Of a DNA stretch of 64,000 nucleotides, positions 780 through 36,135 are shown piece by piece (the first letter of the stretch is position 1; each line of letters starts with the position of its first letter). A program made the position numbers and the translations under genes. Below the pieces are notes generated by a model. It saw only the letters and a list, made by a program, of their open reading frames with translations. It did not search any database and was not told where the DNA came from. Source of the stretch: Spizellomyces punctatus DAOM BR117 (lineage: Eukaryota); the NCBI GenBank assembly GCA_000182565.2, contig KQ257452.1; one strand, written 5' to 3'.

Positions 780-1751
780 TCAGAGCTTTGATGGCCTCTG
801 CTTTGACCACGAAGGCTTGGTTTTCTTTAAAAATGCAGACATTCCATCCCGCGCCTCCTCCGACTGAAGCATCTTTGTAAAGACTTCCTTTACATGTGGG
901 ATCGCATCTTCATGTGCGGGCGATTCAGAAACCAATCGCACGAGGTGTTTGACATTCGTCAGTGCTCCAGGAGCTCCTTCGATCAGCAAATCAGAGTACT
1001 TTCTCGTACATGTATCCAAAGCCACCTCGTCATCCACTACTTCGGATAAGGCACCAATGCGAAGGCATTCCTTGGCGGTCACCTTCTCTCCTGTCAACAT
1101 GTACTGACGGGTTCGAAATGGACCCAGCTGGGGCGTAATATACAGCGATATTATGGCAGGGACAAGTCCTCTCCGCACTTCAGGGAACGAGATATACGCG
1201 GATGCGACAGAGACTCGGATATCGCAGCAAAACAATACACCGACCCCGCCGCCCAGGCAAGGACCGTTGACGCGAGCAATGACCGGCTTGGGTGAATTTG
1301 CTATTGACTCAAAAAACCTGTAGCCGGCCTCCACCTGCGGACTCGAAGACCTTCCGTTTTGCGCTGTTGACGAGCCCCCCAAGTCCATTCCTGTACAAAA
1401 GTACTTGCCTGATAGTGTTTCGTCGATTACGGTTGTGTCACGATATTATGATACTCGCTGAATGAGACTTACATACCAGTGCCGGTCAGAACAATAACCC
1501 TGACGACAGGATCTTCATTCGCACGTGCAAAGGCGTCTGGTATTTCCTTTGACATTGTACTCGATATGGCATTCGCTCGTTCAGGATAGTTGAGCTACAC
1601 CGTTGAATGAATGGCGACATTTAGCAAATAAAGTCCCCTAGATATGCAGACAATTGCAAGATGTTGCGGCACATGAGACTCAGACGCTCACCGTGATCGT
1701 AGCCACACCATCATTGACAGAGTACAGGATTTGTTGATATGGAGCGGACAT
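780..1751 (-). CDS. Crotonase-family enoyl-CoA hydratase of the LiuC/AtuE (methylglutaconyl/isohexenylglutaconyl-CoA hydratase) type with C-terminal PTS1 (SKL); spliced
   Basis: ATG at 1751 (MSAPYQQILYSVNDGVATIT). Motifs YFCTGMDL, KPVIARVNGPCLGGGVG, FPEVRRGLVPAIIS and SEEARDGMSAF; ends PSKL-stop. GGGVG (no first catalytic Glu) is the bacterial LiuC/AtuE pattern, not the AUH pattern GGGLE. Confidence 0.9.
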
Positions 1752-1923: not shown

Positions 1924-4900
1924 ATGTCCAACCCAGCTGTCCGTCTGGCATCTATTGCCCTTCACCTACAGTCAACCGGAGCCAGTCGCTCTGGTGGAGC
2001 CGGTCATTCGTTCGAAGTTAGCCCGCGACCAGAGGTATATTCGATACGCTAGGTATTCTCAATATGTTCAGGAATGGCTTATTCTCTTTGGTCTTTCAGC
2101 TGAACCAGCCGATGGCAGATATCCTACGCGAGAGAAAAAATGCCTCGTTTGATGTGAATCTCATGCAGACATATTTAAACGGAGGGAAGGAATACACCCA
2201 GGCAAAGGTACGGTGCTAACTTGGATCAACGTAAAGTTACAAGGAGGAAAATGCAACAAGAGTAGTTAGACTACTTTCTATATACCATGATGCACTCTCT
2301 TTCATGGACGTTTATAAAGCTATCTGTCTTTCATAGGAAATCGCGTATCAGATCATCCGACGCGATCCAATTCTCTTGTTCGATGGAGGAAACGACTACG
2401 ATCTTACGCGACCGGAAGCGCGAGAGAAAAGTATGGCACAAGTCCGCCGGTTTGTGGAAATATACCATAGCCTGAAGAACCCCATTCAACAGAAGGCATT
2501 TGAGGTCGTTCTATCGTACGTGTCCACGTCCGTATGGGGTAACCAGACCTTTCCGATAACCTAACATCCGACTTGTGCAAAGGTCCTACTCAGAGTCCTT
2601 TGGAATGCGTCTCTATGTGCATCATATGCTATTCAGAAACTCTATCAAGATGTTTGCGAGTGAGGAGCAAAAGAAAAAGACGACATGGGTGAAAGATATC
2701 GACGACTTTAGCGTGCTGGGGTGCTTTGCCATGGTAAGTGGAAAGCACAGCATAGCCTCCATGTCGTGAACCTCAAAATCTCAAACATTTCTCCTTGTCA
2801 AAGACGGAGCTCGGTCATAGGTATCCGAGCCCAATTTTTGTTGGATCGCCAGTACCCACTTCTAATATGTACCAACTGGTGTTTGAAGCTCGTCCCTTCG
2901 AGATCTGGAAGCCACTGCGACTTTTGATCACGCTACAGATTCGTTCATTCTCCACAGCCCGACATTAACCAGCACGAAATGGTGGATCGGGATGTCTGGC
3001 CAGGCTGCTACACATACGGTATTCCTAGCCCAAACGATCGTCAAAGGCAAAAACTGTGGTCTCAACTGGTTTATGGTCCCTCTTCGCGATCGGCATACTG
3101 GGAGGTTGTTTCCCGGAGTAACCTGCGGAGATATTGGAGCGAAAGCAGGGCGACATGGACTTGACAACGGATGGATCCAGTTGACGCAAGTGCGAATCCC
3201 AAGAGAAAACATGCTGATGCGCTGGTCGCAGGTTAGTTACCTATAACTCAAGTTATTTGTAGTAGGTGTATTCGTTAATTAAACAAACCTGCATAATGGC
3301 AGATCGATCGTGAAGGGAATATAAGCGAACCTCCAAACCAGGCTCTTGTGTACGTCTATCCTTCGGTCGCTCTGTATCTGTACATGCTGACATAGAAACT
3401 TCTAGATATGCCACACTTATCGCAGAGCGTCTCTGTACAGTTGATGGGACAAATAATCTCTGTGGACAAGCCCTGACAATTGCCACGAGATATAGTTGTG
3501 CACGACGCCAGGGAACTAGCAACCAGCAGATTATGGACTATCAAACACATTATGTCAATTTGATGCCCGGAGTTGCCGGAATGTATGTCTTGTCGCTGGT
3601 GGATCGGTATGTAACTCGCTCTCCCAGCTCCCGCATTGTTTTTGGCTTCTGACCTTTTTCCTATGGTCACCAGTTGTCTCTGGGCGTACTGGGATCGCAT
3701 GGAGGAACTGTCTCGTACAAACACCGAGGAATATTTGTACGTTATTTTTTCAGTCCAACATTCACATCGTACACATTAACGACGCGAGTGCTTATAGGCA
3801 GTACCTAAATGACATCCATTGCGTCGCCGCGGGTGCAAAAGCTTCCATTACTTGGTGGGGTTCTGAAATACTCGAACGATGCCGAAGAGCGATGGGTGGA
3901 CATGGGTTTAGCGCGTACAGTGGGATTCCGTCTATTATCGGCGACTGGGGAGTATTTACAACAGGCGGCGGGGACAACTTTCCTCTGGCGCAACAAACCG
4001 CGGTATATAGCCTCTTCTGTATCACAGACGTAGAGACTGCTCATTGACTTTGATTCATTCAGCGATATGTGCTTAATTGCGTCAACAGATCAATGCAAGG
4101 AAAGCCCAACTTTGGAAGTGCCGAGTACCTCAAGGATATCAAGGCCATCCTCGAGTTTAATGTGTGCCCAGCCGATTCATCCGCCGCGTGGTTGGATTTG
4201 CCTTTACTGCAAAGACTCTTTGCGTCTTTGACCGTCAAGCTGGTACGTCTTTAGGCAAGTGAGATGTGGAAGCATTTTTTCAAACTAATGTGATGGCATT
4301 ATCTAGGCTATGAGAATTGGACAGCGCTTGGCACCGGTTGCTAAGAAGGGCCAAGATAAAGTCGAAGCTGTGTGGAACGAGCATCAGCTTGACGTTCTGC
4401 GCCTCAGGTGAGATTACGATGCGACCTCTTAATTAGGACTGCTTCCGAATGATTATATTGGCTGATGATTTTTGTCTCTGCGCCGAACGCCAGCCACCTC
4501 CACACCATCCACTACCTGCTTTCCCTCTTCACATCCAGCGTCAGCTCGCTTGGATCCGAATACACTAGCTTGAAACCCATCTTGACAAAAGTCGGGCTTA
4601 CATGGGCGTTGGACATGGCTGTCCGTGACCTGGATTTGATGTTGGAGGAAGGGTTTGTTACCGCTGCCCAAGCACAGAATTTGAGAGTGGCGAGAAATGG
4701 AATCTGCAAGGAGCTGAGAAACGATGTTATTCCCTTAATGGATGGTACCGTTGTTCAGCCATTTCTAATGCCATTGTAGTATCTAAGAATTATGACTAAT
4801 TTCCCGCTTTTCTGGTCATATCTATGTAGCATTTGGAAGACCGGATTTCCTCTTGAAGAGCCCCTTGGGACGGTACGATGGAGATATTTACAACGGTAAT

Positions 4901-5071
4901 GCCTTTGTTTCACGCTTCTCCATTGTTGACCGCGACAGTTCCCTCTGTATTTACTATTAATGGTTTTCTGCAGCCTACTTTGACACTGTTACTAGAGCTC
5001 CCAACTGCTATGGCCCTGCCAATTACTGGAGTACGGAAGTGGAACCGCTCCTTACACGGGTCCGACCTTGA
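1924..5071 (+). CDS. Acyl-CoA oxidase family protein with N-terminal PTS2; multi-exon
   Basis: MSNPAVRLASIALHL contains the PTS2 pattern RLx5HL. Motifs GCFAMTELGHSS (spliced through a 17-nt micro-exon at about 2804-2820), TKWWIG, GVTCGDIGAKAGRHGLDNG, IPRENML, TIATRYSCARRQ, CRRAMGGHGFS and SPLGRYDGDIY; stop TGA at 5069-5071. Confidence 0.9.
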
Positions 5072-5341: not shown

Positions 5342-7806
5342 ATGTCCGTCGCTCAGGCGCCACCTTCCAACGGACATCAATATCGTCGGATAAAGTCCAA
5401 GGTCGATACGTCCCGCCCAGAATACACGGCCAATCATGCCGAAATGTCAGGGCTGGTGCAAGAGCTCCGCGAAAGGTTACGGGAGGCTACGGGACAGGGA
5501 CGAAAAAAAGTGATACAACGGCATTTGGAGAGAGGGCAGTTGCTGGGTATGTAGATATGTTCTAGACTGTCAATACTGGCCGTACGTGATGAAATGAGGA
5601 CTCCCCAACGTCCGCGACCGTTTGACTTGGAAAACTAAAGGAACCAACTCCCCCTTTTGCTTTTGCAGCTCGCGACCGTATTGAACTCTTGATAGATGAA
5701 GACTCTCCATTCCTCGAGTTGATGCCATTGGCAGGCTGGGGACAGGAAGATATGACCATTGGCGGCTCTACAGTTGCAGGCATAGGCCTCGTTTGGTGGG
5801 GACACAATCATACGTTTCGCTCTTGTTTTAAGCCCTTGAATAAGACTTGGAGTACTCCAAAACAGCGGTGTGGAAACTCTTATAGCTGCAAATATACCTA
5901 CCATTGCAGGCGGTGCAACCAATGAAGCGGGCGTGAAGAAGGCACTAAGGCTTCATGAAATTCAGATGGAGAATCGGCTGCCTGGGATCTGGCTCACGCA
6001 ATCGGTATGATTGTGCTCTAGTCAGCTGCAGGCGCATACATTATCCCTAATACCAAAGCGGTGTGAAGGCTGGTGCAAATCTAGGGCAGCAATCCCAAGT
6101 ATTTCATGCAGGAGGTGGAAATTTCCGAAATTTGGCCATTCGGTGCGTACTGCGATCACGTCTCAGGCCTGTACCAGTCCTGTCTTACACTTATTCTTGG
6201 CGTATCTCAGGTCTAAAGCCAACATCCCAACCTGCTGCGTTGTTTTCGGTAGCTCTACTGCCGGCGGTGCGTACACCCCGGGAATGTCAGATTATGTTAT
6301 TATGGTCAAGGTACTGTCTCGCACCTCACCTTGGTCGCATACACGTGTACGCTCACTGCTGATATTTTGTACTGTTCAGAATCAAGCCCAAGTCTTTCTG
6401 GGTGGGCCTCCACTCGTCAAGATGGCCACTGGTGAAGTCGTTGATGCTGAGTCTTTGGGTGGCGCGGAAATGCACAGCATAAAGTCTGGTAGGAGCCAGC
6501 TCCGTAACGGTTGAAAAACGTGCGCAGAATTCTGATTGCCGTCCCATATCAAAATAATACGCAGGCCTCTCTGATCAATTGGCCGACGATGAGCTGCATG
6601 CCATTCGCATGGCACGTGAGTGGGTCGAAGGCCTCAACTGGGAAAAGGCCGGTTCACTTCCTATGACACACATCACGGGCCGTTTTGAGGAGCCGGTTTA
6701 TGAATCTGGTAAGTCTTGCAAGTCGCAGCGCCAGCTCAATTCGATGTTGCTCACGAAGAGGCTACTGTGTGTCCATTAGAGGAACTTTTAGGAATAGTAC
6801 AAGCAAACATCCGTCTCCCGTTCGAATGCCGCGAGGTTATTGCGCGAATTGTTGATGGTAGTCGGTTCAGCGAGTTCAAACCGCTATACGGAAACAACCT
6901 TGTTACCGGGTTCGCCCATGTATACGGTTAGCTGATGATCGAATGCCCTATTACAGATACCGGTGGAAACTAGACATTTTCTCTCTATGAAGGAATTCCA
7001 ATCGGTATTATTTCGAATAACAGCGTCATCTTTCCAGAGGAAGCAAATAAAGCCACTCAATTCATACAACTGTGCAATCAACGGTAGGGTGCACTGTAGT
7101 GTTGTATTCGATTGCAAACTGCAGTCCATTGATGGCTGGCCGTAAATATCTAGATCAACACCCATCCTCTTCCTTCAAAACATCACTGGATTCATGGTCG
7201 GACGCGTATACGAGGAAGCAGGGATCATCAAGGCGGGTGCCCGATTCATTAATGCGGTATCAAATAGCTGCGTACCACACATAACTATCAACATGGGCGC
7301 AAGCTATGGGGCCGGGAACTACGCTATGTGTGGACGAGCATACCGGCCAAGGTAGGTTAATGTGTCCGAGGATGTAATATGTGCAATGACAGCATCTTAC
7401 GCTGACATTCTTTTATGGACAGATTTTTATTTTCTTACCCAAACAGCAAGTGTTCTGTTATGGGACCCGAGCAACTAACGGGTGTCATGGACATTATTGC
7501 TCGTGAAGCGGCTGCTCGGTAAGTCAGTTGCACACTTGTGGTCACAAGTAAGAGGTTACTAACCAGTACTTCACTCTCTATCGTAGAGCGAATCGCAAGG
7601 TGGATGAAGAAGCCCTTGCAGCACGTCTGGAGGTTTTTAGGTCCGCCGTTGCTGAGGAACAGGATGTGTACTTTACGTCATCCCGACTGTTAGATGATAG
7701 TATCATTGACCCAAGGGACACCCGGGACATTCTGGGCATTTGTCTCAGTGTTATTTATGGGGCTGAAGTGAAAGGCGGGAACTTGTATGGCGTTGCTAGG
7801 ATGTGA
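5342..7806 (+). CDS. Acyl-CoA carboxylase carboxyltransferase (beta) subunit, AtuC/AccD2-like branch of the MCC-beta family; ends in PTS1-like ARM
   Basis: Motifs [79 protein letters not shown] and [16 protein letters not shown]-terminus YGVARM. No obvious mitochondrial presequence. Confidence 0.88.
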
Positions 7807-8157: not shown

Positions 8158-8653
8158 ATGCTGAATTAAGTCTTCTCTAAAACTTGTATATTGTCATGCG
8201 GCGTTTGCCCGCTCAACTATACATTGACAAGTGTCTCCCATTATCCCCGTATTGATGACATTGTACCCTAATCGACACAACATTGTTTCTGGTAAGACCT
8301 GGAGAGTGTCCCTCAAGAATATCTCGAAATAGTTACCGCAAACGAAGCCCAGGCTCAAAAGTATGTCCTCCGGTTAGGTATGGGAGGCGTTTAGTAATGT
8401 ACTGGGAGATGATGACAAAGGATTCCATGCCTGAAAACGTAGACGCTTGCGTATCCTCACGAGGATATGTTACTCCAAATAATTTTAACGCCGAGATAGC
8501 TAGATGATGGTTAGGATCATGTATATTTTTGGTTATTTCGGCTTGGAGTAGAGACGAGGGCTGTATTTCAATAAAAGGATGCGCGAGCTGCCTTTAACTT
8601 CTTTGCACACGTTAGAGATTTTGCTCGCTTAAGGAACTTTGTTGAAATAAAAT

Positions 8654-10751
8654 ATGGAGTCAAACCGTTGTTCAGTTTACGGTGATAGTCCGGGAACGCC
8701 TACCTCTGCGACAGCCAAGTCGCCATTTTTGGGAGAAGGGCGTGCTAGACGGGTGACGGTTGGTGAATGTGATAATCCACGACGGTCCGTCGCAGAAGAG
8801 AATGGGCAACCAAGAGAGAGGAAGAAACTTTGGCGGATACCTTTTGTTGTGCCAATGATCTGTATGTTGTCTTTGTGGGTGTGCTTTAGAGTTATCCTGA
8901 AATTGTGATGGTGTTTCTCATTGGTGATGGTTATCAGCGATTCCCGTTCTCATATCTGTTGTGGCAATCTCCATCATTGGGTTCATGGCATTCAAAGGGG
9001 CAGACCAGACTGTCGACGAGAGTAAGTTTTGCTTTACCCGCAATATAGAGTTGATTCTGTCGATGCTCAAATCATCTTGTCCTTCACCAGTTACCGAGAC
9101 CTTACAGGACATTACAATGGATCGAGTTTATGATAGTGTAACATCCCTCGTTCAACAATGCTCTGATGCCCTTACGATTCTCGGACGTTCTCAGCCATCC
9201 TACGGCTCTTCCAAAGGATTGAATCCAATGTGACCAATATTTTATCGGATGATGTTACTGTGTAGGTTGCATATTTTTTTCGTTTCCATATGTCCGCTAA
9301 GAAGATAACATGCAGCCCATAGCATCTCCCAACTGTACGCGGTTGCGGCAACCTATGACTTTCTAACCTCTGCTGGCTTGGAAGTCTATCGTGACGAGAG
9401 TGTGATCTTTGCTACACCAAAGGTGCTCATGTTGCAGGACGGCTCATCCTATAACAACGTGACAAATGTCACCGATTTTGCCGTAAGATATGTCACTGGA
9501 GTCAATAATTATAGTGAAATGCAGTTTGGCCCACTTAACCGCTTACCGTGGCATTACTGGCAATCGGTAAGATTCGATGGTTATCATTGAATGTTGGGAA
9601 CAAAATAGCTACCAAGGGCAGGAAACTAACTTTACCTTCTAGATTGAACTCCCTTCGTTTCCCGATGGAAACAGTACTACGGTCTGGTCTGACTATTATG
9701 TCGGTTTAACCGAAATTTACTACCCCATCAAATGGCCAATATGGTGGGTACTGTGTAGTATATTGATGTTTGGCATATTGTTTGTTATAACACGAAGCTC
9801 TGACGCAACCAAACATAGGGCTGGCCTTCCTTTTGGCAAGGCGGATCCCGATGTCCCGCCTTTTGGAGCTGTGACATTAGCACTTTCGGTGACCAGTATT
9901 CAACGCATTCTGAGCAAGGTCTACGTTAGTCCTAATGCAGTTGTCGCATTGTGGTACGGTCCTTGTCTCTAAATTTCCTTCAGTCGCAAGTGCGCGGGTG
10001 TACTTAATGGTTATTTTCTGCAACAATTAGGGAACCAAGCGCAAACAGCAGTGTCTACTTTCACATGATTGCTGCCAGCGTGCCCAATATCAGCATACAC
10101 GCCGGGGACCGCTATTCCGCACTCGACTGCCCTCATAAGCTGTTATCGCAAGTCGCGCGTCGCTTGCAGTTGATTTACCCCAACTCCACTGCTTTCCCCA
10201 ATGAAATGTGGACAACTTTTAATGACTTGCCGGACGGCGATGGGACCATTCTCGTCAGCGCACGATGGATTAGTAACATTGTAGACCCGAATGGTTTCAA
10301 GTGGTTAGTTGTCGCCGTGATACCAAAGAACGACTTTCTAAAGACAATGCAGCAAACCCGTAAGCGCGTTATTGGAGCTGTTGCCGGTACAACGGCAGCA
10401 ATGGCAGTTTTTGCGATCATCATGGCCTACTTTCTGGTTTCTCCTATCAAGAAACTCTCCCAAACAATGATCCAGGCAACCGACGTTGACTTTTCCGCTA
10501 TTCGCGATGGATACTTGACCAAAAACAGTATTTTCGAACCACTGGAAATCGCACAGTGCAAAGAGGTCTTTAACATTATGTTGACCCGATTTGCGAAAGC
10601 CATTCAGATCAATAAGAGCTTGCAGGGAAACAGAGCACCAGCACTGGCATCAGCTCTGGTGTCATCTACGACTCCGCAGGCAAGGACTCAAAATAAGAGG
10701 TTGTCGGAGGTTTCTGGACAGAGTGGGGCCTCGGAGGAAGGACAAAGATAG
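8654..10751 (+). CDS. Two-TM membrane protein with Cache-like extracellular region and HAMP-like domain, no visible output domain; multi-exon
   Basis: TM1 (AIPVLISVVAISIIGFMAF); extracellular region ending GFKWLVVAVIPKNDFL (Cache-like end); TM2 (VIGAVAGTTAAMAVFAIIMAYFLV); HAMP-like SPIKKLSQTMIQA...LEIAQCKEVFNIMLTRF; short low-complexity tail; stop at 10751. Confidence 0.7.
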
Positions 10752-11839: not shown

Positions 11840-13434
11840 TCACTTTGCACGCTGACTTTTCATTTTCCAAACCGCAATCGCAATTACAGAAGAGCCCACT
11901 ACAGCACTCCCAATCAAAGTCCACACACTCGGTTGGACTCCCCACAAGGCCCACTCGGCCAAGAACGCCACAACGACTTGGACATAATTCATACTGCTTG
12001 CCCGTCCGGCTGTTTCGATGTGTAAGGCTTTTGAAAGATAGATTTGACCAAAGAATGCAGAGCTTGAGACGAGGACGAGGTACATGTAAGTTAGCGGGTC
12101 TTGTGGGAGGATCCATGGGTGTGGGGAGGGGAGAACGAGTGCGAATAAGAGGGACAGGGGAACGGACATGAGAGAGAAAGTTGAAACAATATGCATGGGA
12201 GTCGCTCGGCCTTTGAGGCGACGAACAACAATGTAGACAAGGGCTCCAAACAAAGCACCCGTGATGGCTATGACAACTCCCAAGATGCGCGTTCCTTCGT
12301 TGGATGCGGCTACAGTTGCGGCTGCGGTTGCAGGAGTCGATGATGTGGGGTCCAAAACGGACGGATAGCCTTGAGCAAACTCGGAAGCAGTAGAAGGATC
12401 ATCCGGAATTTGTTCGGACCCGAAATCAGATGGTCCGGCTTGTAAAAGGTCATCTGGCGTAGCGTCCACGGCTGTGCGTCCAAACAAAAAGGACGGACGA
12501 GCAATGAATATGACCCCGATCATGGATAAAGCCCCAGTAATCCCGTCAATCAGCTAAAAAGTTTGACTAATGTTAGAGTTTTTCCGTGATATCGAAGTCA
12601 TGATAGATGATTACGCCGTTACCTCATAAGGTTCCTTTAGAATGAATCGAGCGAGAATGGCTGTAAAGACTGGTGACAAGAATCCAAGAACTGTTGCATC
12701 CGCCAAGTTGAGCATAGATAATGCAAACCATCCACACGTCAATCCACCAAACCCAATAACGCCTCGCAGGACCAACTACAATTCAAACATCACAGTCAAC
12801 AATCAGGCGCTACTGTTGATATCAAGCCTGCTTCACTCACCAAAAGGCGAACATCTTTGGGGCCCAGCAGCCAATCCTCATATCCCCAGCGAAGCATCCA
12901 AGCAGTTCCCATAAAGTAAACCAACACGCTTCTAAAGAAAACAATCTCCAACGTCGGCAGTTGTTCTGCAGCCTTGGTCATGGCCTTGACGCCGACAGAC
13001 ATGCAACAGAACAGGCATGCAGCGAAAAGCATGTAAAAGAGTCCCAGATTCGTTGCAACAAAGGTTTGAAAAGCAGTTTTCGGTGGCTCCAAGGAAGATG
13101 ATTTGAGAATAGTGGGGTCCTGCTCCCCACTTTTCTCCTTCTCTTCATGCAGTGTCTTGGCCGATGCATTGGGATTCACAAGCTGGTCGGTATCTCTTTC
13201 CGAAAATGCTTCCTCTCCCTCTTCTTCCTCTACTGCAGCGTCGCCTCCGCTCTCAAGTTCGCGAGCCTGGAGACCCGCTTCCTGGCTGGGCGTCCGAGGA
13301 ACATGAACAGGGGCACCACCGGGTTTGCGATAGATTCTTGACTGCTTGAGATTGCCAATGCTACCGCGGGGTGTGCCTGCCGTGTCAAGGAGATCGAGTT
13401 GGGATATGACGACAAGGTCGGCGGTTGAGTCCAT
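11840..13434 (-). CDS. EamA/DMT drug-metabolite transporter (SLC35G/YMR253C-like); 3 exons
   Basis: Multiple TM helices: GLFYMLFAACLFCCMSVGVK, EIVFFRS, LRGVIGFGGL, LADATVLGFLSPVFTAILARFILKE, GVIFIARPSFLFG and ETAGRASSMNYVQVV. Confidence 0.88.
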
Positions 13435-15366: not shown

Positions 15367-18300
15367 CTAACGACGACTGGTACGACGGACAGTAGTGAAT
15401 CCATCATCGTGCGGTGGTTGATCAGATCCTCGCTCACGCTCACGCTCCCTCCATCTGCTGCCAGGTGCCGCCGAGGATGGTTCAACTCCGTTAGATCGCG
15501 GCTCTTCCGCTTTTGAACGCCATCCTCCTGTGCCAGGTCTCCAGGCTCCAGAACGTTCCTCACGGGCAGGTTCGCGGGGGGCATCACGGGCAACATCGCG
15601 AAGAGTATCACGTAGGGGTGCTTGATCCTCCCCTGCCTTTTGTCGCCACGAGCCACCACCAGGTCTCCAAGTTCCCGGACGCTCTTCTCGAGGAGGCTCT
15701 TCGCTGCGAGGAGCTTCCGGGCGCCGCCACGCGTCAGGCTCTTCTCTCCTTGCCTCCTCACGAGCTCGCCATCCTCCTCCTCCAGACTCTTGGCGACGTA
15801 CCGGTGGGACGTACTTGCCTCCCGTGGCACCGCCTGCGGCAGAGACGGGTACTGGTGCAGGCGCAGGTTCACGTCTGCGCCATTCAGACTCTGCGGGTCG
15901 CGTAGGCGGAGCTCGCAGTTGCTCCCTTTCCCGTGCAAGGCGCTCTTCAATAGCTTGCTCGCGTTCCCGAGTCTTTTGCGCAACCTCCTCCAATTTTCTA
16001 ACGGATTATAATCAGATGAGTTTAACCTATTCTTGTTCTCAGACACGGTTGCAATTACTAGGTACCTGAGGCGCTCGGCTTCAGCTGCATGCTGGGCTTC
16101 CTGTCGAGCTGCTCTTTCTTCTGCTTCTCGAGCTTCCTCTGTAAAAGCGATACGCTTCGATATAAATAATCCGAGGCACTATCAAGGGCAACCTGTCCGG
16201 TTCTTACCTTCGGCGCGGATCCTGGCCAGCTCTTCTTGGCGGATCCTCTCCTGTTCTTCGTGTTCACGACGGCGCAGTTCTTCTTCCTTACGCTGCTTGT
16301 ACTCTTCAATCCTCCGCTGTTTAGCTTCAGCGAGTCGCGCCTCGGCATCGGCACGGATGGCTTCGTACTCGGCGTTCCGCTCGGCAGACATGCGCTCCTT
16401 CAGAGAACGGTAATCATCCAACATGCGGAGCATGCGGGATTTCTGCTGCATGGCTTCCTGGTGCTGAACTTTGGCCGCCTCGCGCTTTGCCTTAATGAGA
16501 ACCTTGTAGGAGGCCATGTCGGTGACCTTTTGTTCCTCGTAGTCCTTGTCAAAGAGAGGAATTTCCTCCTTGCGGTAGGCACGCTCAATGTGATCAAACT
16601 TCTTGCCAATGGCCTTCAGCTTATTCTGCATTTCGCGCTTCTCCTTTTCAAGTTGCTCAATTTGGATTTGTCTGAGACGGGTAGTGTCCAGAGTTTCGAG
16701 CTCCTCCTGTTTGACCTTCACATTCTTATCCTTGAGATCCTCCGCAAGCTTGGCGGCGAGCTTGGCAGCCTCCTGTTTTTGAATCTCCAAACGATGTTGA
16801 AGTAAACGGTCCTGCTCACGCTTCTTAGATTCCTCCTCCTGCCTAATTTTCTCCGCCTCTCTCTCCTTCTCGAGACGCTCTTTCCTAGCCTCCTGCTCGG
16901 CCTTTTCCTGTGACGCCATCCCATTGATAAGTATCAATCGTACTTTCTAATCGATGACTTTAACTTACTTTAGCCATCAGTTCATTCTCACGAAGCTCCT
17001 TCTTTTTCTCAATGAGCAAGCGCCTCTGCGCGGTCTGACGACGCTCTTCCTCGAGACGTTCAACGGCCTCCGCGAACGCTCGCGCCTTGGCTTCTTTCTT
17101 AACCTGAACCACGCGCTCTTCTGGAGGTAGAGTCTGCGACGTCATGCCAATCAAAGCAACGGCAGTGTGAAGGCGTTTTGCGAGACGCGTAAGTTGGGTA
17201 CGCATTTGCTCAGATGGGAGTGACTACAGAAAATACTCTCAATAAAAGGGCCAGGCAAGGGAGTCCAGTGTGCACTGCTTACCTGCAGTTGAGGTCCTTC
17301 AGAAATTGTTCCCCTTGAAGCCGCAAAGACATCTGTCTCAAAGGTAAGGGTCTGCGACTGATGATTGACACGAATAGATAGCTCGCCCTTTTTGCAGCCG
17401 TTCATGATAAATTTCTCAATGTGGTGAGCGCTGTAGCTAAAAGGTTCGGGGAACGACGCCAATTTGACCACCGAGTCAATTTTGATCGTGGTGTAGACTT
17501 GCGACAACTAATGCGCACATAGAGATAACATTAGTTCCAGTCAACCTATTAATACATAAACGCTGTACCAACCTGCTGTAAAAGGCGGGTCAGAATGACT
17601 TGGTGCAAAGGCTCCACGTATGTTGCCAGATCCTTGTCTTCCTGGAGCTTGGGCAGAAGATGCGCAATCTTTTTGGTGATCGACAGTGGGTGAAACTGAA
17701 CTTCCAAAATCTGGTAGAGTTCTTTCAGCTCGGGACGCACACGAGCGAAGACGGATTTGCTGAGGGCTTCCTTCAACAGAATTTCACGAGTGGGAGTCCG
17801 GGAGACACGAAGGAGATTCGCCAGGCGTGCTGTCTTTGGCTTGTTCTCGTCGCCATCCATGTACACACCGCGAGTCTTTGAGGTTGTAATAATGGGGATG
17901 GCAAGCGCAGACATCAGCACAATGGAGGCCATTCGTTCGTGTTCCTCCTCGCTCAAGTTCTTGTTCTGGCGCACGGTGCCGTAGTACTTATTCCATGCAG
18001 CGGCGTGGAACATGTAGTTCTCCCCTACCATGAAAATTCTGGCAAGCTTTTCGTAGTAGTTCGCCATCATGAAGGGCTTTGGCGGCTTCTTCGACATTGC
18101 CAACAGGTTGTGGATGTCCTCCACAGACCGGAATGCCTCTTGCCACAATTGAAGCTCTGTAGCTGCGTTCAACTGCACAAAGCGAGTGTCCAAATGGCGT
18201 TGGAGGGTATCAGGGTCATTCAAGTTGATAGCATGAGCCTGGTGAGCGTATTTGGCGGCAGTAGCCAGGTGCTGGCGAAGGAGCTCGCACAGCCGACGGA

Positions 18301-19030
18301 ACTCAGTTTTGCGCGTGTACTTTAAGCAAAACTGGAAGGCCTGGTTGGCCACCGATTGGTATAAAATCTCCAAGCGGGCATTGTTCCTCAGAATGTCCAG
18401 CGCTGTTCGGTAGGCCTCCCACAAGAACTTTAACCAAGGAGTCACCACCTCTCTGTCCGTACGGTCCTTGTCCACTTCAGCACTGACAGTGCTTAAAATG
18501 ATAGACTCCGGAGTCTCAGAGGCTTCCAGATCTTCAACAGAATCCAATGTAATCTTCTCGGCTTTGGCTTGTGCATCGGCCACCTTAGCCTCAGACAGCT
18601 CAATGAATCGCTTGATCACTTGCTACATACGCGACAGTCGTTAGTTCTTGCTGAACTATTATTCTGATGCTAACAATAACAACAAACCTCAATGCTCGCC
18701 ACCGTAATGTTTTGAGAAATGTTCTTATACTGGTGAAGACCCTCCTTGGCAGTCTTTCCCTTGCGAAGGTTAACACAAAGCTCGACAAACTTTAGCATAA
18801 TCGGCTCAAGAGTCCCCAAAGGAGTAGACCTTGACCGTTTCGACATGACAATTTCATGAAGAAGGGTCAATGCCGACGCAGGCTGGGACACTGCAATAAG
18901 GTCTACAAAAGAAGTCACAATTGTCAGCAGAGCTCCCAGGATTTCGATTACCTTGCCCAAACAAAGGATGGTCCTACACACCTTCAGCCCGCTTGAGAGC
19001 ATTCTCGGGCCTGTTGTAGAATCGCGACAT
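15367..19030 (-). CDS. TIF32: Translation initiation factor eIF3 subunit a; multi-exon
   Basis: Start [16 protein letters not shown]; motifs [49 protein letters not shown] and [19 protein letters not shown] region, long E/R/K coiled coil, and GKYVPP/WR-repeat tail. Confidence 0.97.
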
Positions 19031-19501
19031 GATTGCGCAAAAGGCCTCTTTCCTCCCCCGGTCACAGAAAGAGAAAAGAAGCTAGAGAAGCGTGGGTAAC
19101 CTCTGTCAAAGGCGGAGACAGGGGATACCGAGGTCGATGAAGGGGTTGAGGCGTAACCGGTGACCTCTAATGTAGCAGATGCTCCTCCGTTGAACAGGAG
19201 GGATGTGACGGATCCGCAAGGTGCTGTTGGCAGAACCCTCACCAGCTCGACAAGGGAAGAAAACCGGCTACGCGCAACAGTGGCACAGCCATCTTGAAAT
19301 CATGTGACTGTGAGTTGGCCTTCACCACAAAGTTAAACCACATCACGGTGGATTTGGGAACTTGGAAGATAAATCAAGGCAAATCAACATTTATATTAAT
19401 AGCCATCTGAGCAATACCATCCTTGTCAAGATACATATCCACCCTCCAATAACCTAAATCCTAGCCCAAAAAACAACATCATATAGCATTGAACGGAAGG
19501 C

Positions 19502-30061: not shown

Positions 30062-33000
30062 TCATTCTACCACCTTGCCCTTGCCTTTTGCATCTTCCTC
30101 ATAGCCAAACGGGTGCTGTGGCAGAGTTCCTGGTTCGTACTCTTGTGTTGGCCACTCGTTGGGCTGTTGTCGTTGAAGGGGGATACCATCGCCCTCTGCA
30201 TTTCCATCCGTACCGGCACTTTTCGAAGCAGCTGAAGGTTCAGGATGAGAAAATAGTGATGGCGTCGATAGCATAGACTCCACAGGTGGTGCACTGGTAT
30301 TTTGCCCAGCCTGCCCACCCGTCTCCGCCTCGTCTGCAACTTTTTCATCCATTTCAGCAACACCAACTCCCATTTCTTTGTTCTTCTCGGCCATTTCAAT
30401 TAAGCCAGGAAGCTCTTTCTCTTTCTCTCCGACAACCAATCGGGGAATGCTAACGTGGTAAACCCCAATGCCAATGTGCTGGCGATGCTTTGGAGGCTCG
30501 AAACGAAGTCGAAACACTGCAAGCTCTGGAGTTGCGATTTTCTCGTCTACCACTGGATCACCGCTTTCCTGGCGTGTAATCCAGGAGGCAGGGACCACCT
30601 CATCGATCTCGCACCAGTTACGCCGAGCCATAATTTTACGGTGTCCCTTTTTGTTAGGATGGCCATCAACGTCGTGCTGGAAAATATGCACAAGTCCTTC
30701 GGTCGTATTTGGTACATTCAGCACCGGTTTACGAGAAGACGACCATTGGAACAATTTCAACACAATCTTTGGTGGTGGAATATTCCCAATAGCGGAGGAT
30801 ACAATGTTGTACATTAATCTGTCAAGGAAGAGCAACGTCAGGATGTGCATACAAAGTGATACTCGTAGGGGCTGCTGACCTTGGATCCTGCAGCGGTGGA
30901 ATTTCGTATACATGCTTCGTGTCCCGTTTTAAATTCGCTTGAGTCCTAAACTGGGCGATGGCAGCACAGTGTACATCGCCGGCAATGATGGTAACACGAA
31001 TAGANNNNNNNNNNNNNNNNNNNNNNNNNNNNNNNNNNNNNNNNNNNNNNNNNNNNNNNNNNNNNNNNNNNNNNNNNNNNNNNNNNNNNNNNNNNNNNNN
31101 NNNNNNNNNNNNNNNNNNNNNNNNNNNNNNNNNNNNNNNNNNNNNNNNNNNNNNNNNNNNNNNNNNNNNNNNNNNNNNNNNNNNNNNNNNNNNNNNNNNN
31201 NNNNNNNNNNNNNNNNNNNNNNNNNNNNNNNNNNNNNNNNNNNNNNNNNNNNNNNNNNNNNNNNNNNNNNNNNNNNNNNNNNNNNNNNNNNNNNNNNNNN
31301 NNNNNNNNNNNNNNNNNNNNNNNNNNNNNNNNNNNNNNNNNNNNNNNNNNNNNNNNNNNNNNNNNNNNNNNNAATCTTGCTGAACAGCTCCATAACCTTT
31401 TCGGTGACACCGAGTACAGGAAACGAGACAGGAACACCGGCAGCAAAAATCAAATGTTCCACTGTTGGGGGCAACGAAGGCAAGTACTCCTCAAATAGCA
31501 TATCCCAAGTTTTAGGATCGCAAACGCGAGTTTTTTTACGTTCAAAGCGACCGTCACTGCCAAAGATGGCTGTCCGTGGACCCATAAGCCGAAGGAAATT
31601 GTAGCCAGTAGATCCTCCCCATAGCCCTTCATCTCGAGCTCGCAGCGTGGTGGTATGGTGTTGGAACAGAAGGTAGAACCGGAGAGCAATCTTCCCAATA
31701 GCTTGAAAGACAGGACACTGTTGTAATGGATCAGGGTAAGCTACAAAACAATAAGTGGAACGGGTCAAAAAAACTGAGAGCACAATTGCAGCAATCGCAA
31801 GACTGGTCTTACATCCAAATCCGCTACAATCAGACAAGAACAAGATTCAATCAGATGTCAACAGTTTGCATCGTCATGCCAAAGAAACAAAAAGCTCTTG
31901 CTTACTCAAAAATATCATGATCATCCACAATGTTAATGCTGGGGATCGCGGCCATGGCATCCCCCACCACCGGCTGCGAGAAGTGAGCGAGATAGTGCAT
32001 CAAGTAATATCTAAACGTCTGTTTAGATCACAAAGCCAAAGACGAATGATTAATCGCGATTAGTACCGTTCAACTTCAATTTGCATCTCCACGGTGAACT
32101 GGTAGGATTCACGTTCAACGCTATTAGTAATATCCAGCCATTGGCGAAGACTTTGGCAATGGAAAAAGAAATCGTCTTGATATATCTGGTTTGAATGAGA
32201 TGAACATATCAATCAGAGATGTGTGAAGGTGTCTACGATGCGTCTCTTGATATCGCAATTACCTGATCCCCACATCCAACCATTAAATGTAGCGGTCGTT
32301 TCTTATGAACCGCCAACTTATCCCGCCAAAGGGGTCGCACGCCATCGAACTTTTCCTCCGGATTCTTCGTGTCCGTTCCAAATCCGTTGCAAGAGTAGAA
32401 TGCCCAATGCCAAGGTTCGTCTCTGGCAGCTACATAAAACTCGTAGGCTGTGCCGCCAGATATTGTTGAATCTACTCCTTCCGTTGTACCGTTTCCCTGT
32501 GAGCTCGACGCCTCTTGCGGGTCAACCGTGTAGGTAACTTTTTGACTTCGGCCAGAGCTAACACGTGGCTCCCCAGTTTCTATACCTTGCTGCTTCAAGT
32601 GCCGTGCTTGTGGATCACCTACTTCTGTGGCATCAAGAAGGGGCTCTGAAGGTGCGTTTTCAAGCGATATTTGCAAATCGTAGCGGACAGCAGAGTAACC
32701 TGTTCCGCTAATGTCTTCATCGAGGATGACGGGATCTACCCATCGTCCGCCGTCTAGTTTGGAATGAACATGAATGCGAGGAGGAGTACGGGACATGTGA
32801 TGCACGTATAGAATATTTCCAAGCCACACGTTCTTGTCCAAATCAACGTTGTGAAAGTTCAGGAATGGTCCATATAAGGGCTTGAGGGGTGCAGGCGGTG
32901 GAACTTTCTTCTTGTGATCCGTTCCCTCAGATACGTCTTTATCTTTGTTGCTTGCATTTTTCTGGCCGCTGTTTTGTTCGGGGTGAGCGAGCTGGTCGAG

Positions 33001-33327
33001 CTCGACGGTTTGTCCATCTTCCAAATGAAAGGCGATCTCGACATTGTCAGTTCCACCCACTTCCTTTTTGGCATCTTGTAGCGCTGCGAGCATATCATGA
33101 CATGCTTGAACACCCAGGTCTCCCCCTCGGTTCAGTCGTGCTCGACGGTGTGTGATATTCCTTTCACGAAAGAAACCTACACACGGGTTGCATGACACTG
33201 CCTTGTGGCTTTGGACCGCGATCTCTGAAGCTGGGGCGTGAGTATGAACCCCACTATGTGGCCTATGTGTGTCGTCCCTGGATACTGCCGGGTGCGTTGC
33301 GTTGGACATGGCGGATGGACAGGACAC
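30062..33327 (-). CDS. Fungal PhoD-like phosphatase-domain protein, interrupted by an assembly gap
   Basis: Motifs YGPFLNF, WAFYSCNGF, PLWRDKLAVHKKRPLHLMVGCGDQ-IYQD, NIVDDHDI, FYLLFQHHTT, AGDVHCA, MYNIVSSAIGN and MARRNWC. Start could be 33327 or 33309. Confidence 0.8.
31005..31372. other. Assembly gap (368 N)
   Basis: Run of N inside the PhoD-like gene. Confidence 1.
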
Positions 33328-34932
33328 AAAATGGATGGCAGGCTGAACGGACTTTGAACTTTCGCGCCTTGAACTGGGCGGGACTCAGGTTGCGTCATCA
33401 GCTGTCACATGTTTAACAGCGCTCACCCTGCAGGGCTTTTGGACGACTTATTTGCCAACGTGCATGGCAAAGACTTCTGCTACAAATTGCTTGGCAGAAA
33501 ATACGGGATCTACCAAAGCTGTCACTCCATCAGCGGCGGTGTGCATCTTTACTGTTGAGATGGATCATGAAGGCATCGCATTGTTCTGTTGGTGATCACT
33601 CATTTACCAGATCTGGAGCGACTGTGCTGCAGACAGAGTGTGAGTAGCGATTATCCATCATCCTTCAACTTGCACATTGCCTGGATTTGGTATGATTGCT
33701 TTACTAGTAGAAAAGTATTAGTATCGATAGCGGTCGAGTGGAATGTTGAACACATTATTATGCATTACCTAAATTTGGTATCGGTGTCGAAGATGCCAAA
33801 AGGTTGCGTCCAAATTGCGATATGGTCAGCTCAGGTATCGGGCAGCATCAAGCCAGTTTTGGCTCTTGGCTGACCATGTTTCAAGACCATATGCTATCCC
33901 AAATCCTACAAATCTGTTCAAACGATGGCTTCGCTATAGAGGCTTTCCATCACATCAAAATGTTGTGCTTGCTGTAGGTATGCTTCGGATTTCCCGTTCA
34001 TAATCCATGTCGCTTCTATAACGGTTCCTTTCTGGTGCTACTCCGTCTCTGTCGTGAGGTCTGGAATGAATCTAAATGCTTTGCACAGTCTCGGCAACCA
34101 TTCATGGTTTCTGCTTTAGCCTTTATCTCTATCCGCTGCATAAAACTATAACAAATCAATGAAATCTTGATGGTTTCGGGACGCCTTTTTGGTCAGTTGT
34201 ATGCAGGATGTGGATCCGCACTGATCAAAATCGCTGAAGCGCCGTGGAGCGCCATGATCCAGGATGCATCTCTTATTCCTGTGCCTGGGAGACCACTTCA
34301 TTTGCAACTATGCAACGATAGCAAACTTGGAGTTACAGTATGGCTACGAGAGACCTAGAAAGTCCTCCTGGTTGCCGCAGAGCTATAAAGTCGCTCACTG
34401 TATGCGTCTGGTAGCCTATAAGCATCAGGCTTTTCGAAACTGGTTCTGAATGCGGGCATGACTGAAAAGCACCTTGCAGCACCAGTAAAACCATTCAAGG
34501 TGGATGAGATTGCACTTGGGTCTAAACCGCGATAGTGTCCGGGTATGACCACGGAATCATTCCCGTTCACGAGATAGGAGCGATCCAACGAAAATCCAGT
34601 ATTCAGATGCCATAGCCTCTCACATTTCTCATCCAAAAGCTCACTTTTCCCACCTAATTGTAACATTGCAAGGTAATGCAAGCTCGTACACAGCACAACT
34701 GTCGCCGGTAACTTTCGTCAACTCAACATACGTAAGCTTCCCGCAAATCACACTAAAGGGGACAGAAAATAGTTACAATTCTGTAATTTATTATTATAAA
34801 CCAATATTTCGTGCAGTCAAGTAAAAGCGCATTAAACCACCGAGGGATCAGCCTGTTCTGTATACACAAACCACGTGTGGACTTCTAACGGACATGGCTA
34901 ATTTACAAACTATTCGAAACTGTGCAAAGTAT

Positions 34933-36135
34933 CTAAACAGCGAGGGCAAACAGGGCGGCCACGCCCACCAGTAATCCAGCTGCCACTTTGTTAACCATCA
35001 CCTGTTCGCCAGCACTTTTGGCACTCGCAGCTATGGGTGAACCGGAGGTAGGGGAAGGCGAGGCTGGGCTGCTTGCGGTCGAGGTCGAAACCGAGGTAGG
35101 AGTCGCCGAGGGTGCTGTCGATGTAGATGAAGTGGGAGTAGTTCCATTACCGCGATAAAAGGGCTGGTTCAGGCAAGTCCCAACGGGCATCATTTTGAGT
35201 GGAAAGTTGGCACCGGCAGCTTTCACCTCGTTAAGAACGTTTATCGCGATGCCGCTTGTGAATGGACTAATGTCGTGTTCAAGACTAATAAAACTCTTTT
35301 GAGCGGTGAACCACGTCTTGACGGTGTCTACAATCTTTTGCGAAGTGGCGGGAGATGCATCTGTTTGATCAGCATCAGTCGAGTCTCGGACCGGAGTGGT
35401 CGTCCAGAGAGTGGTAGAGTAGCCCAATGCCGTGGCAATGGCACGGATCCGGTCATCAACGTCACCACAGGGCGGACGCCAAAAGATCGGAAGACTACCG
35501 GTAGCGTTGTAGATCATGGCCTCAGTGTACTTTATTTCCGCAACAAATTGAGCGTTGGTGAGGGAAGTGGCGGGATAATGCGTCCAGGTGTGGACTCCAA
35601 TCTGATGACCTTCAGCAAACGATTTTTTAATCTCTTCTGGATTCTGTAATCCATTGGCGCCAACGATAAAGAAAGTAGCTTTGAGCTTCATGGCATCTAG
35701 TGCTGCCCTGAGCGAGGGAGTATCATTCTGGTTTTGTCCATTTACCACGTTGACGGTTGGACCATCATCGTATGTCAGGCCCCACACGTTATCCCCGGGG
35801 CAGCTAACGACATCAGCCTTAAAACCCGCCGTGTCATTTGTTCTCACGCAAAGATTGTTTGGCCAGTAGCAGTTTGTAGCGGCTGTGTCGGCAGGGTATG
35901 TTGCAACGCATGGAGACTTGTATTGTGACGGAGGAATGTTCAAGTACTGAGGGGGAACAGTTGCCTGCACGTAGGCGAGGGCGGTTGTAACGAGAGGATC
36001 CTTTAGGAAATTTTCGGGAATGGGACTTGCTTCATCTGTTGGCGGCCAGGCTGCCGGCATGGGAGGTGGTAAGGGGAGATCGGCGGCAATCGCCGTTGCT
36101 GCAAGCAGGATGAGAGAAGCAACTTGAGGAAGCAT
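34933..36135 (-). CDS. Chitin/polysaccharide deacetylase (CE4), secreted, probably GPI-anchored; intronless
   Basis: Signal peptide MLPQVASLILLAATAIA; NodB motifs LTYDDGP, HTWTH, FWRPPCG, DSTD and ISLEH; Ser/Thr-rich linker; hydrophobic C-terminus. Confidence 0.92.
   Translation of the reverse strand: MLPQVASLILLAATAIAADLPLPPPMPAAWPPTDEASPIPENFLKDPLVTTALAYVQATVPPQYLNIPPSQYKSPCVATYPADTAATNCYWPNNLCVRTNDTAGFKADVVSCPGDNVWGLTYDDGPTVNVVNGQNQNDTPSLRAALDAMKLKATFFIVGANGLQNPEEIKKSFAEGHQIGVHTWTHYPATSLTNAQFVAEIKYTEAMIYNATGSLPIFWRPPCGDVDDRIRAIATALGYSTTLWTTTPVRDSTDADQTDASPATSQKIVDTVKTWFTAQKSFISLEHDISPFTSGIAINVLNEVKAAGANFPLKMMPVGTCLNQPFYRGNGTTPTSSTSTAPSATPTSVSTSTASSPASPSPTSGSPIAASAKSAGEQVMVNKVAAGLLVGVAALFALAV

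Follow-up and report, generated by a model that had tools for sequence, protein, structure and literature searches.

A 64,000-nucleotide stretch of contig KQ257452.1 (GenBank assembly GCA_000182565.2) from Spizellomyces punctatus DAOM BR117, called the window below, contains a gene of the acyl-CoA oxidase (ACOX) family that lies between a divergently transcribed enoyl-CoA hydratase/isomerase gene and a carboxyltransferase β-subunit gene (Table 1). The encoded protein lacks the catalytic Glu at its usual loop position and carries a Glu directly before the conserved Arg of helix G. The window has short open reading frames only and a G+C content of about 47%, and the 15-exon gene model was assembled from the three-frame translation. 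All 14 introns are GT..AG introns of 56-129 nt, and the surrounding sequence is rich in short introns of this kind, which identifies it as eukaryotic DNA. An exon search of a large protein collection returned as its best match P0001, an annotated 706-residue acyl-CoA oxidase of Spizellomyces sp. 'palustris'. The model and P0001 are colinear and identical at 674 of 706 positions (95.5%) with zero gaps, and this gap-free alignment indicates that the model is sound. RNA reads from run X7, which carries the same species label as the window, confirm the introns at 4745-4829 (10 reads) and 4896-4973 (16 reads). This run is 3'-biased and reaches just these last two introns, which is why exons 8 and 10 have no RNA joints. 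Contigs from three DNA runs, possibly from the same sample as the window assembly, show 0 differences over the motif sites.

Table 1. Features of the ACOX-like gene and its two neighbours (positions in the window)
Feature	Position	Strand	Description
Enoyl-CoA hydratase/isomerase gene	780-1751	-	3 exons (1751-1692, 1594-1477, 1408-780); 268 aa
-SKL C terminus (PTS1) of hydratase	783-791	-	
ACOX-family gene	1924-5071	+	15 exons; product 706 aa
Exons of ACOX-family gene	1924-2034, 2100-2207, 2337-2515, 2583-2733, 2804-2820, 2889-3231, 3303-3349, 3406-3606, 3674-3736, 3798-4002, 4063-4242, 4307-4407, 4494-4744, 4830-4895, 4974-5071	+	
PTS2-like nonapeptide RLASIALHL	1942-1968	+	Residues 7-15; identical in P0001
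Ser189 codon	2819-2820 and 2889	+	Split across an intron; TELGH-S-S in the clade
YATLIAERL	3407-3433	+	Exon 8; Glu326 at 3425-3427
ERL of helix G	3425-3433	+	Glu326, proposed catalytic base; Arg327, conserved helix-G arginine
TGGGDN	3961-3978	+	Exon 10; residues 462-467; stands in for T[FWY]EG[DE]N
Poly(A) sites of ACOX-like mRNA	5175 and 5195	+	Loose ends, 11 reads each, run X7; about 104 and 124 nt past the stop codon
Carboxyltransferase β-subunit gene, MCC/GCC lineage	5342-7806	+	12 exons; 551 aa; downstream of the ACOX-like gene
Gly172 of carboxyltransferase	6111-6113	+	Aligned with GCC β Gly162 (Phe191 in MCC β)
-ARM C terminus (PTS1-like) of carboxyltransferase	7795-7803	+	

The protein has the architecture of a peroxisomal ACOX. 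Pfam searches of the exon translations found Acyl-CoA_dh_M, ACOX_C_alpha1 (in two pieces), and ACOX, and the precomputed domains of P0001 are PF14749, PF02770, PF22924, and PF01756. An AlphaFold2 model of P0001 built from 61 sequences has a mean predicted local distance difference test score of 92.2. In Foldseek it matches solved ACOX structures best (TM scores of 0.78-0.92, 25-30% identity); these come from Yarrowia, Arabidopsis, tomato, human, rat, and C. elegans. By all three analyses, the 706-residue protein carries every domain of an ACOX, the additional C-terminal α domain among them, and has the ACOX fold. A search of the ESM Atlas with P0001 returned generic ACOX clusters only. The four-domain fold, the Pfam domains, a peroxisomal targeting motif, the conserved helix-G Arg, and the GGHGY motif are all shared with rat ACOX1 (1IS2/2DDH), Arabidopsis ACX1 (1W07), and Yarrowia ACOX1/3 (5Y9D/5YS9). 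The window protein differs from these enzymes in having Gly in place of both the loop Glu and its adjacent aromatic residue, a Glu before the helix-G Arg, and a Ser in the TELGHGS segment.

The two active-site motifs were compared with solved ACOX sequences. Translation places YATLIAERL and TGGGDN exactly where the initial annotation had read them. A phmmer comparison with the PDB aligned TGGGDN with TWEGDN of Yarrowia ACOX3 and ACOX1, TFEGEN of the rat and human enzymes, and TYEGDN of the tomato enzyme, whereas YATLIAERL aligned with YGTMVYVRQ and YGALIRGRV. Gly463 therefore stands in place of the aromatic residue and Gly464 in place of the canonical catalytic Glu, and the claim that both residues had been lost holds against all five solved sequences. 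The canonical loop Glu of T[FWY]EG[DE]N is thus absent from the window protein. The AlphaFold2 model places residue 326 close to where the helix of residues 322-351 begins, and residues 463-466 form the loop that joins helices 450-462 and 467-486. In this predicted structure, both placements match the positions described for helix G and the J-K loop of the acyl-CoA dehydrogenases (ACADs).

Relocation of the catalytic base is a textbook peculiarity of isovaleryl-CoA dehydrogenase (IVD) and of LCAD, the long-chain acyl-CoA dehydrogenase, within the dehydrogenase family. To obtain comparator dehydrogenases of known context, one exon of the adjacent carboxyltransferase gene was used as the query against plasmid records. 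This search yielded the leucine cluster of S. meliloti, which contains IVD, the β and α subunits of methylcrotonyl-CoA carboxylase (MCC), HMG-CoA lyase, and a crotonase. It also yielded an Atu-type cluster on Achromobacter plasmid NC_014642.1 that encodes, in order, a carboxyltransferase, an ACAD, a hydratase, a biotin carboxylase, and AtuA. Alignment of human IVD (1IVH) with the S. meliloti enzyme identified the Glu and Arg of its LDLERL segment as E254 and R255 and its loop as I373-G374-A375-G376-T377. A profile of 62 members of the clade described below aligned with Sinorhizobium IVD in hhalign (Prob 96.5%, E 8.6e-10), and this alignment set YATLIAERL on MSGLDYERV with E326-R327 on the IVD Glu-Arg pair. 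The AtuD-like ACAD of Achromobacter (385 aa), which represents the AtuD-type citronellyl-CoA dehydrogenases here, has EERL in helix G, and its loop reads I-G-G-G-A. Human LCAD (8W0T) reads QERL and I-Y-G-G-T. The window protein thus has a Glu just before the helix-G Arg and no J-K-loop Glu, the arrangement of the IVD and LCAD type, and the proposed match of its Glu to the IVD and AtuD-type position is supported. The initial annotation had grouped IVD, LCAD, and AtuD under one position of the Glu. The helix-G Glu is indeed common to all of them, but the loop of the window protein matches those of IVD and the AtuD-like enzyme and not the Y-G-G of LCAD. The layout is therefore assigned to the IVD/AtuD kind because the aromatic residue is lost (G-G-G), whereas LCAD keeps it.

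Passages of PMC5798300 describe how the canonical Glu of IVD is replaced by Ala while the helix-G Glu takes over its place and function, a relocation that widens the pocket laterally for a β-branched substrate. The same passages identify the aromatic residue beside the canonical Glu as Tyr375 in medium-chain acyl-CoA dehydrogenase. IVD (human 1IVH, S. meliloti 4KTO) and the window protein share the Glu before the helix-G Arg (LERL and YERV compared to AERL) and the small loop residues (G-A-G compared to G-G-G) where their relatives have aromatic-Glu-Gly. In the S. meliloti cluster, the IVD gene likewise adjoins genes for an MCC/GCC β subunit and a crotonase. The closest match to T-G-G-G-D is the AtuD-like loop, and the carboxyltransferase in the window has the Gly and lacks the insertion, as in geranyl-CoA carboxylase (GCC). 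Differences from the dehydrogenases are equally clear. IVD is an ACAD of about 390 residues that is mitochondrial in eukaryotes, forms a tetramer, and reduces electron transfer flavoprotein (ETF), whereas the window protein has 706 residues, ACOX architecture, and a PTS2-like motif. The AtuD-like enzyme is a bacterial ACAD whose cluster includes the α subunit and AtuA, both missing from the window. LCAD has the helix-G Glu and no loop Glu but retains the aromatic residue and the ACAD architecture, and it is not known as a 3-methyl specialist. The window protein has neither the size and three-domain architecture of a 380-400-residue ACAD nor descent within that family; it nests inside the ACOX family in the tree described below. 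This position indicates that the likeness to IVD is convergent and not a trait held by common descent. The comparison suggests that the window protein works like the IVD-type dehydrogenases without being a member of their family.

The distribution of the two Glu positions was determined in an alignment of the model with 255 database proteins, of which 120 came from a word-indexed search; the best 150 of 5658 matches among 1.84 billion representatives were also used. A helix-G Glu combined with a loop Gly or Ala is found in 111 of the 256 aligned sequences, and 127 keep an acidic loop residue (Glu in 124, Asp in 3) without a helix-G Glu. In seventeen rows, one of the two motif positions could not be read, and none of the 256 rows is devoid of an acidic residue at both. 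The loop Glu is absent from 111 of the 112 clade members in which both columns are readable, and E326 and R327 are invariant in the 62-member clade alignment. The sole row with both Glu is P0145 (Rhizopus microsporus, 528 aa), with PERL at helix G and VGEGDD at the loop; the entry is doubted because it is short and annotated 'putative', and it may be a gene-model error from mis-splicing. Among metagenome sequences, locus L071 (match 47-1819) encodes an ACOX homologue with neither Glu, in which helix G reads FGALVYART and the loop TAGGDN.

A FastTree phylogeny of 219 rows, each at least 560 residues long and readable at both columns, recovered all 98 sequences with a relocated Glu as a single group (support 0.982). 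This monophyly shows that the swap arose once and not as 111 independent events, and the co-variation of the two Glu positions is one evolutionary event that was then kept. The swap had earlier been treated as a peculiarity of one gene; it is instead the defining trait of an old and widespread clade, with the signature ER[LFIV] plus TG[GA]GDN. By source name, the fungal members belong to Chytridiomycota, Blastocladiomycota, Mucoromycota, Mortierellomycota, Glomeromycota, and Zoopagomycota, and the non-fungal members are Planoprotostelium and Balamuthia (Amoebozoa) and Thecamonas (an apusomonad). Among the clade members listed, none carries the name of a dikaryan or an animal. Balamuthia holds both a clade member (P0075) and a paralogue with the canonical Glu (P0132), and canonical-Glu ACOX are present in other chytrids (P0099, P0102); co-occurrence with a clade member in one species was seen for Balamuthia. 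The presence of these canonical enzymes indicates that the clade is a specialised paralogue rather than the sole ACOX.

Additional residues distinguish the clade. Ser189 is present in 100% of its members, whereas 99% of canonical ACOX have Gly at this position of TELGH-S/G-S. This loop aligns with the SEPGAGSD segment of the ACADs. The substitution may be compensatory and lie close to the flavin or thioester site. Trp249, Thr461, Met141, and Gly463 also sharply split the clade from canonical ACOX; within it, Thr461 is 100% and Gly463 98% conserved. Three homologues, P0132 (Balamuthia), P0162 (Luapelamoeba), and P0170, already have Gly for the aromatic residue, retain the loop Glu (TGEGDN in the first two, PGEGDA in the third), and lack a Glu in helix G. 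All three belong to a supported group nearest the relocated-Glu clade, the wider group comprising 102 tips with support of 0.958. Their sequences suggest that they may represent an intermediate state. The sister node with P0132 has support of 0.0, so a direct intermediate in P0132 or P0170 was set aside as just a suggestion.

Peroxisomal targeting signals were examined at the level of sequence motifs. The window protein ends in TRVRP and has no type 1 signal (PTS1). The consensus for the type 2 signal (PTS2) is [RK][LVIQ]x5[HQ][LAF], and the N-terminal nonapeptide RLASIALHL fits it. Among the 89 clade members complete at both ends, 38 have a PTS2-like motif within their first 45 residues. The PTS2-like motif occurs alone in 37, a strict PTS1 alone in 24, both in 1, and neither in 27; 62 of the 89 thus carry a signal of one type or the other.

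The carboxyltransferase encoded downstream belongs to the MCC/GCC lineage. It matches Pfam Carboxyl_trans and, in the PDB, MCC β at 5.5e-25 and GCC β at 1.3e-21, with propionyl-CoA carboxylase types at 1e-8 or weaker. Passages of PMC4673880 distinguish MCC β, with Phe191 after a 3-residue insertion, from GCC β, with Gly162 and no insertion; the Phe191 numbering agrees with human MCC β in our alignment. At this site MCC reads EVFPDRDHFGRIF and GCC reads EIF---VEGARGF, and the window protein has the Gly and lacks the insertion, so both features given for GCC β in those passages are present. The same state occurs in all listed homologues of at least 400 residues except four rows with L or T at the Gly column. 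The protein has no evident N-terminal presequence, and its -ARM terminus resembles a PTS1. Among the homologues P0260-P0389, fungal tails are -SRM (36) or -ARM (3), with three others ending in -SRL, -ARI, and -SRI. The remaining homologues, presumed bacterial, end in -FRM (47), -FRH (10), or -FRL (9). Comparison of these tails indicates that a single change at position -3 turned the conserved tail of the family into a PTS1-like tripeptide in the fungal branch. At least 21 genera are common to the names of clade ACOX and of [SA]RM carboxyltransferases among the matches listed.

The hydratase gene is read from the opposite strand, with 172 bp between its ATG and that of the ACOX-like gene. Its product is a divergent crotonase-family member that matches Pfam ECH_1 at 1.4e-27, and its PDB matches are crotonases, including AtuE (4zu2, 5e-18) and AUH (1hzd, 2e-14). 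No NCBIfam family scored above its cut-off, and the methylglutaconyl-CoA hydratase and isohexenylglutaconyl-CoA hydratase types are not separable for this protein. All three genes are transcribed. The RNA depth in run X7 at the 3' ends is 74 for the ACOX-like gene, 25.5 for the carboxyltransferase gene, and 18.8 on its own (-) strand for the hydratase gene. A gene of the dehydrogenase/oxidase superfamily stands beside an MCC/GCC β subunit and a crotonase hydratase, as in the bacterial Liu and Atu clusters, where an ACAD of the IVD or AtuD type occupies the place of this oxidase in the trio. The initial annotation had tied the active site to a cluster hypothesis. The -SKL hydratase and the -ARM carboxyltransferase do flank the gene, but the cluster has been seen in Spizellomyces only. 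In S. 'palustris', the carboxyltransferase P0260 and the ACOX P0001 are each on a 152,969-bp contig, probably the same one. The clade profile retrieved 80 metagenome loci, which were then searched with 10 peptide fragments of the carboxyltransferase and the hydratase. Eleven of the loci show the relocated Glu, six of them with 1.4-4.7 kb of flank. The flank of locus L003 contains an open frame that, judged by eye, resembles an ATP synthase β subunit.

These data are best explained, in our judgement somewhat better than evenly, by a peroxisomal oxidase with a relocated base that acts on 3-methyl-branched acyl-CoAs. The proton-abstracting Glu would have moved from the T[FWY]EG[DE]N loop to the residue before the helix-G Arg while the aromatic residue became Gly at the same time. 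E326 is probably the catalytic base. By homology with IVD its carboxylate is expected over C2 of the substrate, and by analogy with IVD and AtuD the pocket is predicted to open beside C3. IVD, the AtuD-like enzyme of the ACAD family, and the ACOX clade appear to have reached the same layout independently. In the proposed reaction, the substrate would be a 3-methyl-branched acyl-CoA, either isovaleryl-CoA or a longer ester of the citronellyl type. E326 would take its pro-R α proton, hydride would pass from C3 to N5 of FAD, and O2 would reoxidise FADH2 to give H2O2. The resulting 3-methyl-2-enoyl-CoA would go to a peroxisomal biotin carboxylase, with the GCC-type β subunit encoded by the downstream neighbour, and then to the neighbouring -SKL hydratase. 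Such a sequence of reactions would be the peroxisomal equivalent, in a eukaryote, of the Liu/Atu route of bacteria. We infer the catalytic role of E326, the chemistry (that of an oxidase and not a dehydrogenase), the class of substrate, and the link to a pathway. A preference for 3-methyl-branched substrates is about evenly balanced or slightly favoured. Neither isovaleryl-CoA nor the longer isoprenoid esters can be singled out as the substrate, although the carboxyltransferase, with its open pocket, and the large cavity of the ACOX lean slightly toward the latter.

Several observations weigh against the proposal of a 3-methyl-branched oxidase in a Liu/Atu-like cluster. Searches of the 64 kb by tblastn (E≤1e-3) with the S. 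meliloti α subunit and lyase and with Achromobacter AtuA found no biotin-carboxylase α subunit, HMG-CoA lyase, or AtuA, so these members of a Liu or Atu cluster are lacking. In about 13 other genera, the carboxyltransferase and the clade ACOX are on contigs of unequal size, and 0 of the 80 metagenome loci have a carboxyltransferase or hydratase match; for these two reasons the cluster looks specific to Spizellomycetales. The Gly/no-insertion state is also found in many presumed bacterial homologues annotated as MCC, and it is therefore read as an open pocket and not as geranyl specificity. The loop by itself aligns weakly with the ACADs, at E 0.0082 for TTGGGDN on SIGGGAD of the AtuD-like enzyme and E 0.34 on IGAGTS of IVD, and the alignment is anchored by the preceding GGxGY motif. 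The helix-G base of LCAD serves long or bulky unbranched substrates too. No carboxyltransferase from Mortierellomycota or Amoebozoa is among the matches listed, and likewise none from Thecamonas; because the matches listed are partial or bound to shared words, this gap neither supports nor refutes the proposal.

The account that survives best beside the 3-methyl-branched oxidase is an active ACOX whose relocated base serves other substrates (long, bulky, 2-methyl-branched, dicarboxylic, or ring-bearing), as LCAD does, with its neighbours there by coincidence. We regard this as unlikely, but it draws on the QERL Glu of LCAD, on carboxyltransferase/hydratase synteny confined to Spizellomyces, and on the missing α subunit and lyase. 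It does not account well for a loop that reads G-G-G (G-A-G in some members) like IVD and AtuD-like enzymes and unlike the Y-G-G of LCAD. The flanking genes encode the partner activities found beside bacterial IVD or AtuD, both with peroxisomal signals, and the co-occurrence of the [SA]RM-tailed carboxyltransferase in the same genera also speaks against coincidence.

The idea that the relocation is real but the protein is not an O2-using oxidase, performing other chemistry (oxidation of nitroalkanes or another carbanion) or using another electron acceptor, is improbable. Oxygen reactivity cannot be read from sequence, and Ser189 replaces a 99%-conserved Gly in the TELGH-G/S-S loop that aligns with the ACAD SEPGAGSD segment. 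The full ACOX architecture with its C-terminal ACOX domain and the peroxisomal targeting motifs argue for an oxidase, and to our knowledge no ETF-type acceptor is known in the peroxisomes of these groups.

Still less probable is a catalytically dead or regulatory paralogue, for example a heterodimer partner of a canonical ACOX. The canonical Glu is missing, and canonical paralogues do exist in Balamuthia (P0132) and other chytrids. However, a Glu occupies the sole alternative position known to work in the superfamily and does so in every one of 111 clade members, the other clade substitutions are tightly held too (S189 100%, G463 98%, T461 100%), the fold is predicted with high confidence, and the clade persists over Fungi, Amoebozoa, and Thecamonas. 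A sequencing, assembly, or gene-model artefact is for practical purposes already refuted: exons 8 and 10 have no RNA joints, but over 100 independent database proteins and 11 metagenome loci share the motifs, the DNA contigs show 0 differences, and an independently made annotation is colinear with the model.

The database names of the clade members are all generic ('acyl-CoA oxidase', 'fatty-acyl coenzyme A oxidase', or 'hypothetical protein'), and the relocated-Glu ACOX clade is apparently undescribed. A full-text literature search, with most subscription journals outside its scope, found no description of an ACOX with a relocated base. It found no mention of an isovaleryl-CoA, citronellyl-CoA, or 3-methylbutanoyl-CoA oxidase, whereas citronellyl-CoA dehydrogenase is described, and no paper that combines geranyl-CoA carboxylase, peroxisomes, and fungi. 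According to a passage in a zebrafish paper (PMC8919083), animal ACOXL is little studied. With the IVD solution fixed throughout a clade of the sister oxidases, the clade would offer a clear-cut example of active sites remodelled by convergence. The ER[LFIV] plus TG[GA]GDN signature also distinguishes these proteins within the generic 'acyl-CoA oxidase' label that they now carry. Together with the peroxisome-tagged GCC-type carboxylase and hydratase genes, the clade points to an unrecognised peroxisomal route that would remove a β-methyl block without α-oxidation. Such a route would bear on leucine and isoprenoid-chain breakdown outside mitochondria and on a possible role of biotin carboxylases in peroxisomes. 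We tentatively suggest an ancient peroxisomal pathway for 3-methyl-branched acyl-CoAs, kept in early-diverging fungi, amoebozoans, and apusomonads and composed of the convergent ACOX, a PTS1-tagged GCC-type carboxylase, and a hydratase that is likewise PTS1-tagged. Under this suggestion, offered with the same reserve, its substrates would be leucine-derived isovaleryl-CoA and/or citronellyl/geranyl-type isoprenoid acids. Dikarya, and perhaps animals, may since have lost the pathway.

Other genes in the window were recognised by Pfam. They encode eIF3a (PCI/TPR region, 17552-19299, - strand), an EamA-type transporter (11843-12553, -), a PhoD-related phosphatase (30932-33384, -), and a polysaccharide deacetylase (34936-36153, -), none obviously tied to the cluster. 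Long open frames without a Pfam match lie downstream of the carboxyltransferase gene at 8259-10748 (+), including a 247-residue frame with a hydrophobic stretch at 10008-10748 (+). A large gene or gene pair resembling a nonribosomal peptide synthetase occupies 38592-46760 (+), with a domain mix unusual for a chytrid. Pfam found AMP-binding pieces at 38592-40121 and a thioesterase domain at 45282-46760, and a 1095-residue open frame at 41691-44975 (+) combines a flavin amine-oxidase domain with two phosphopantetheine-binding sites.

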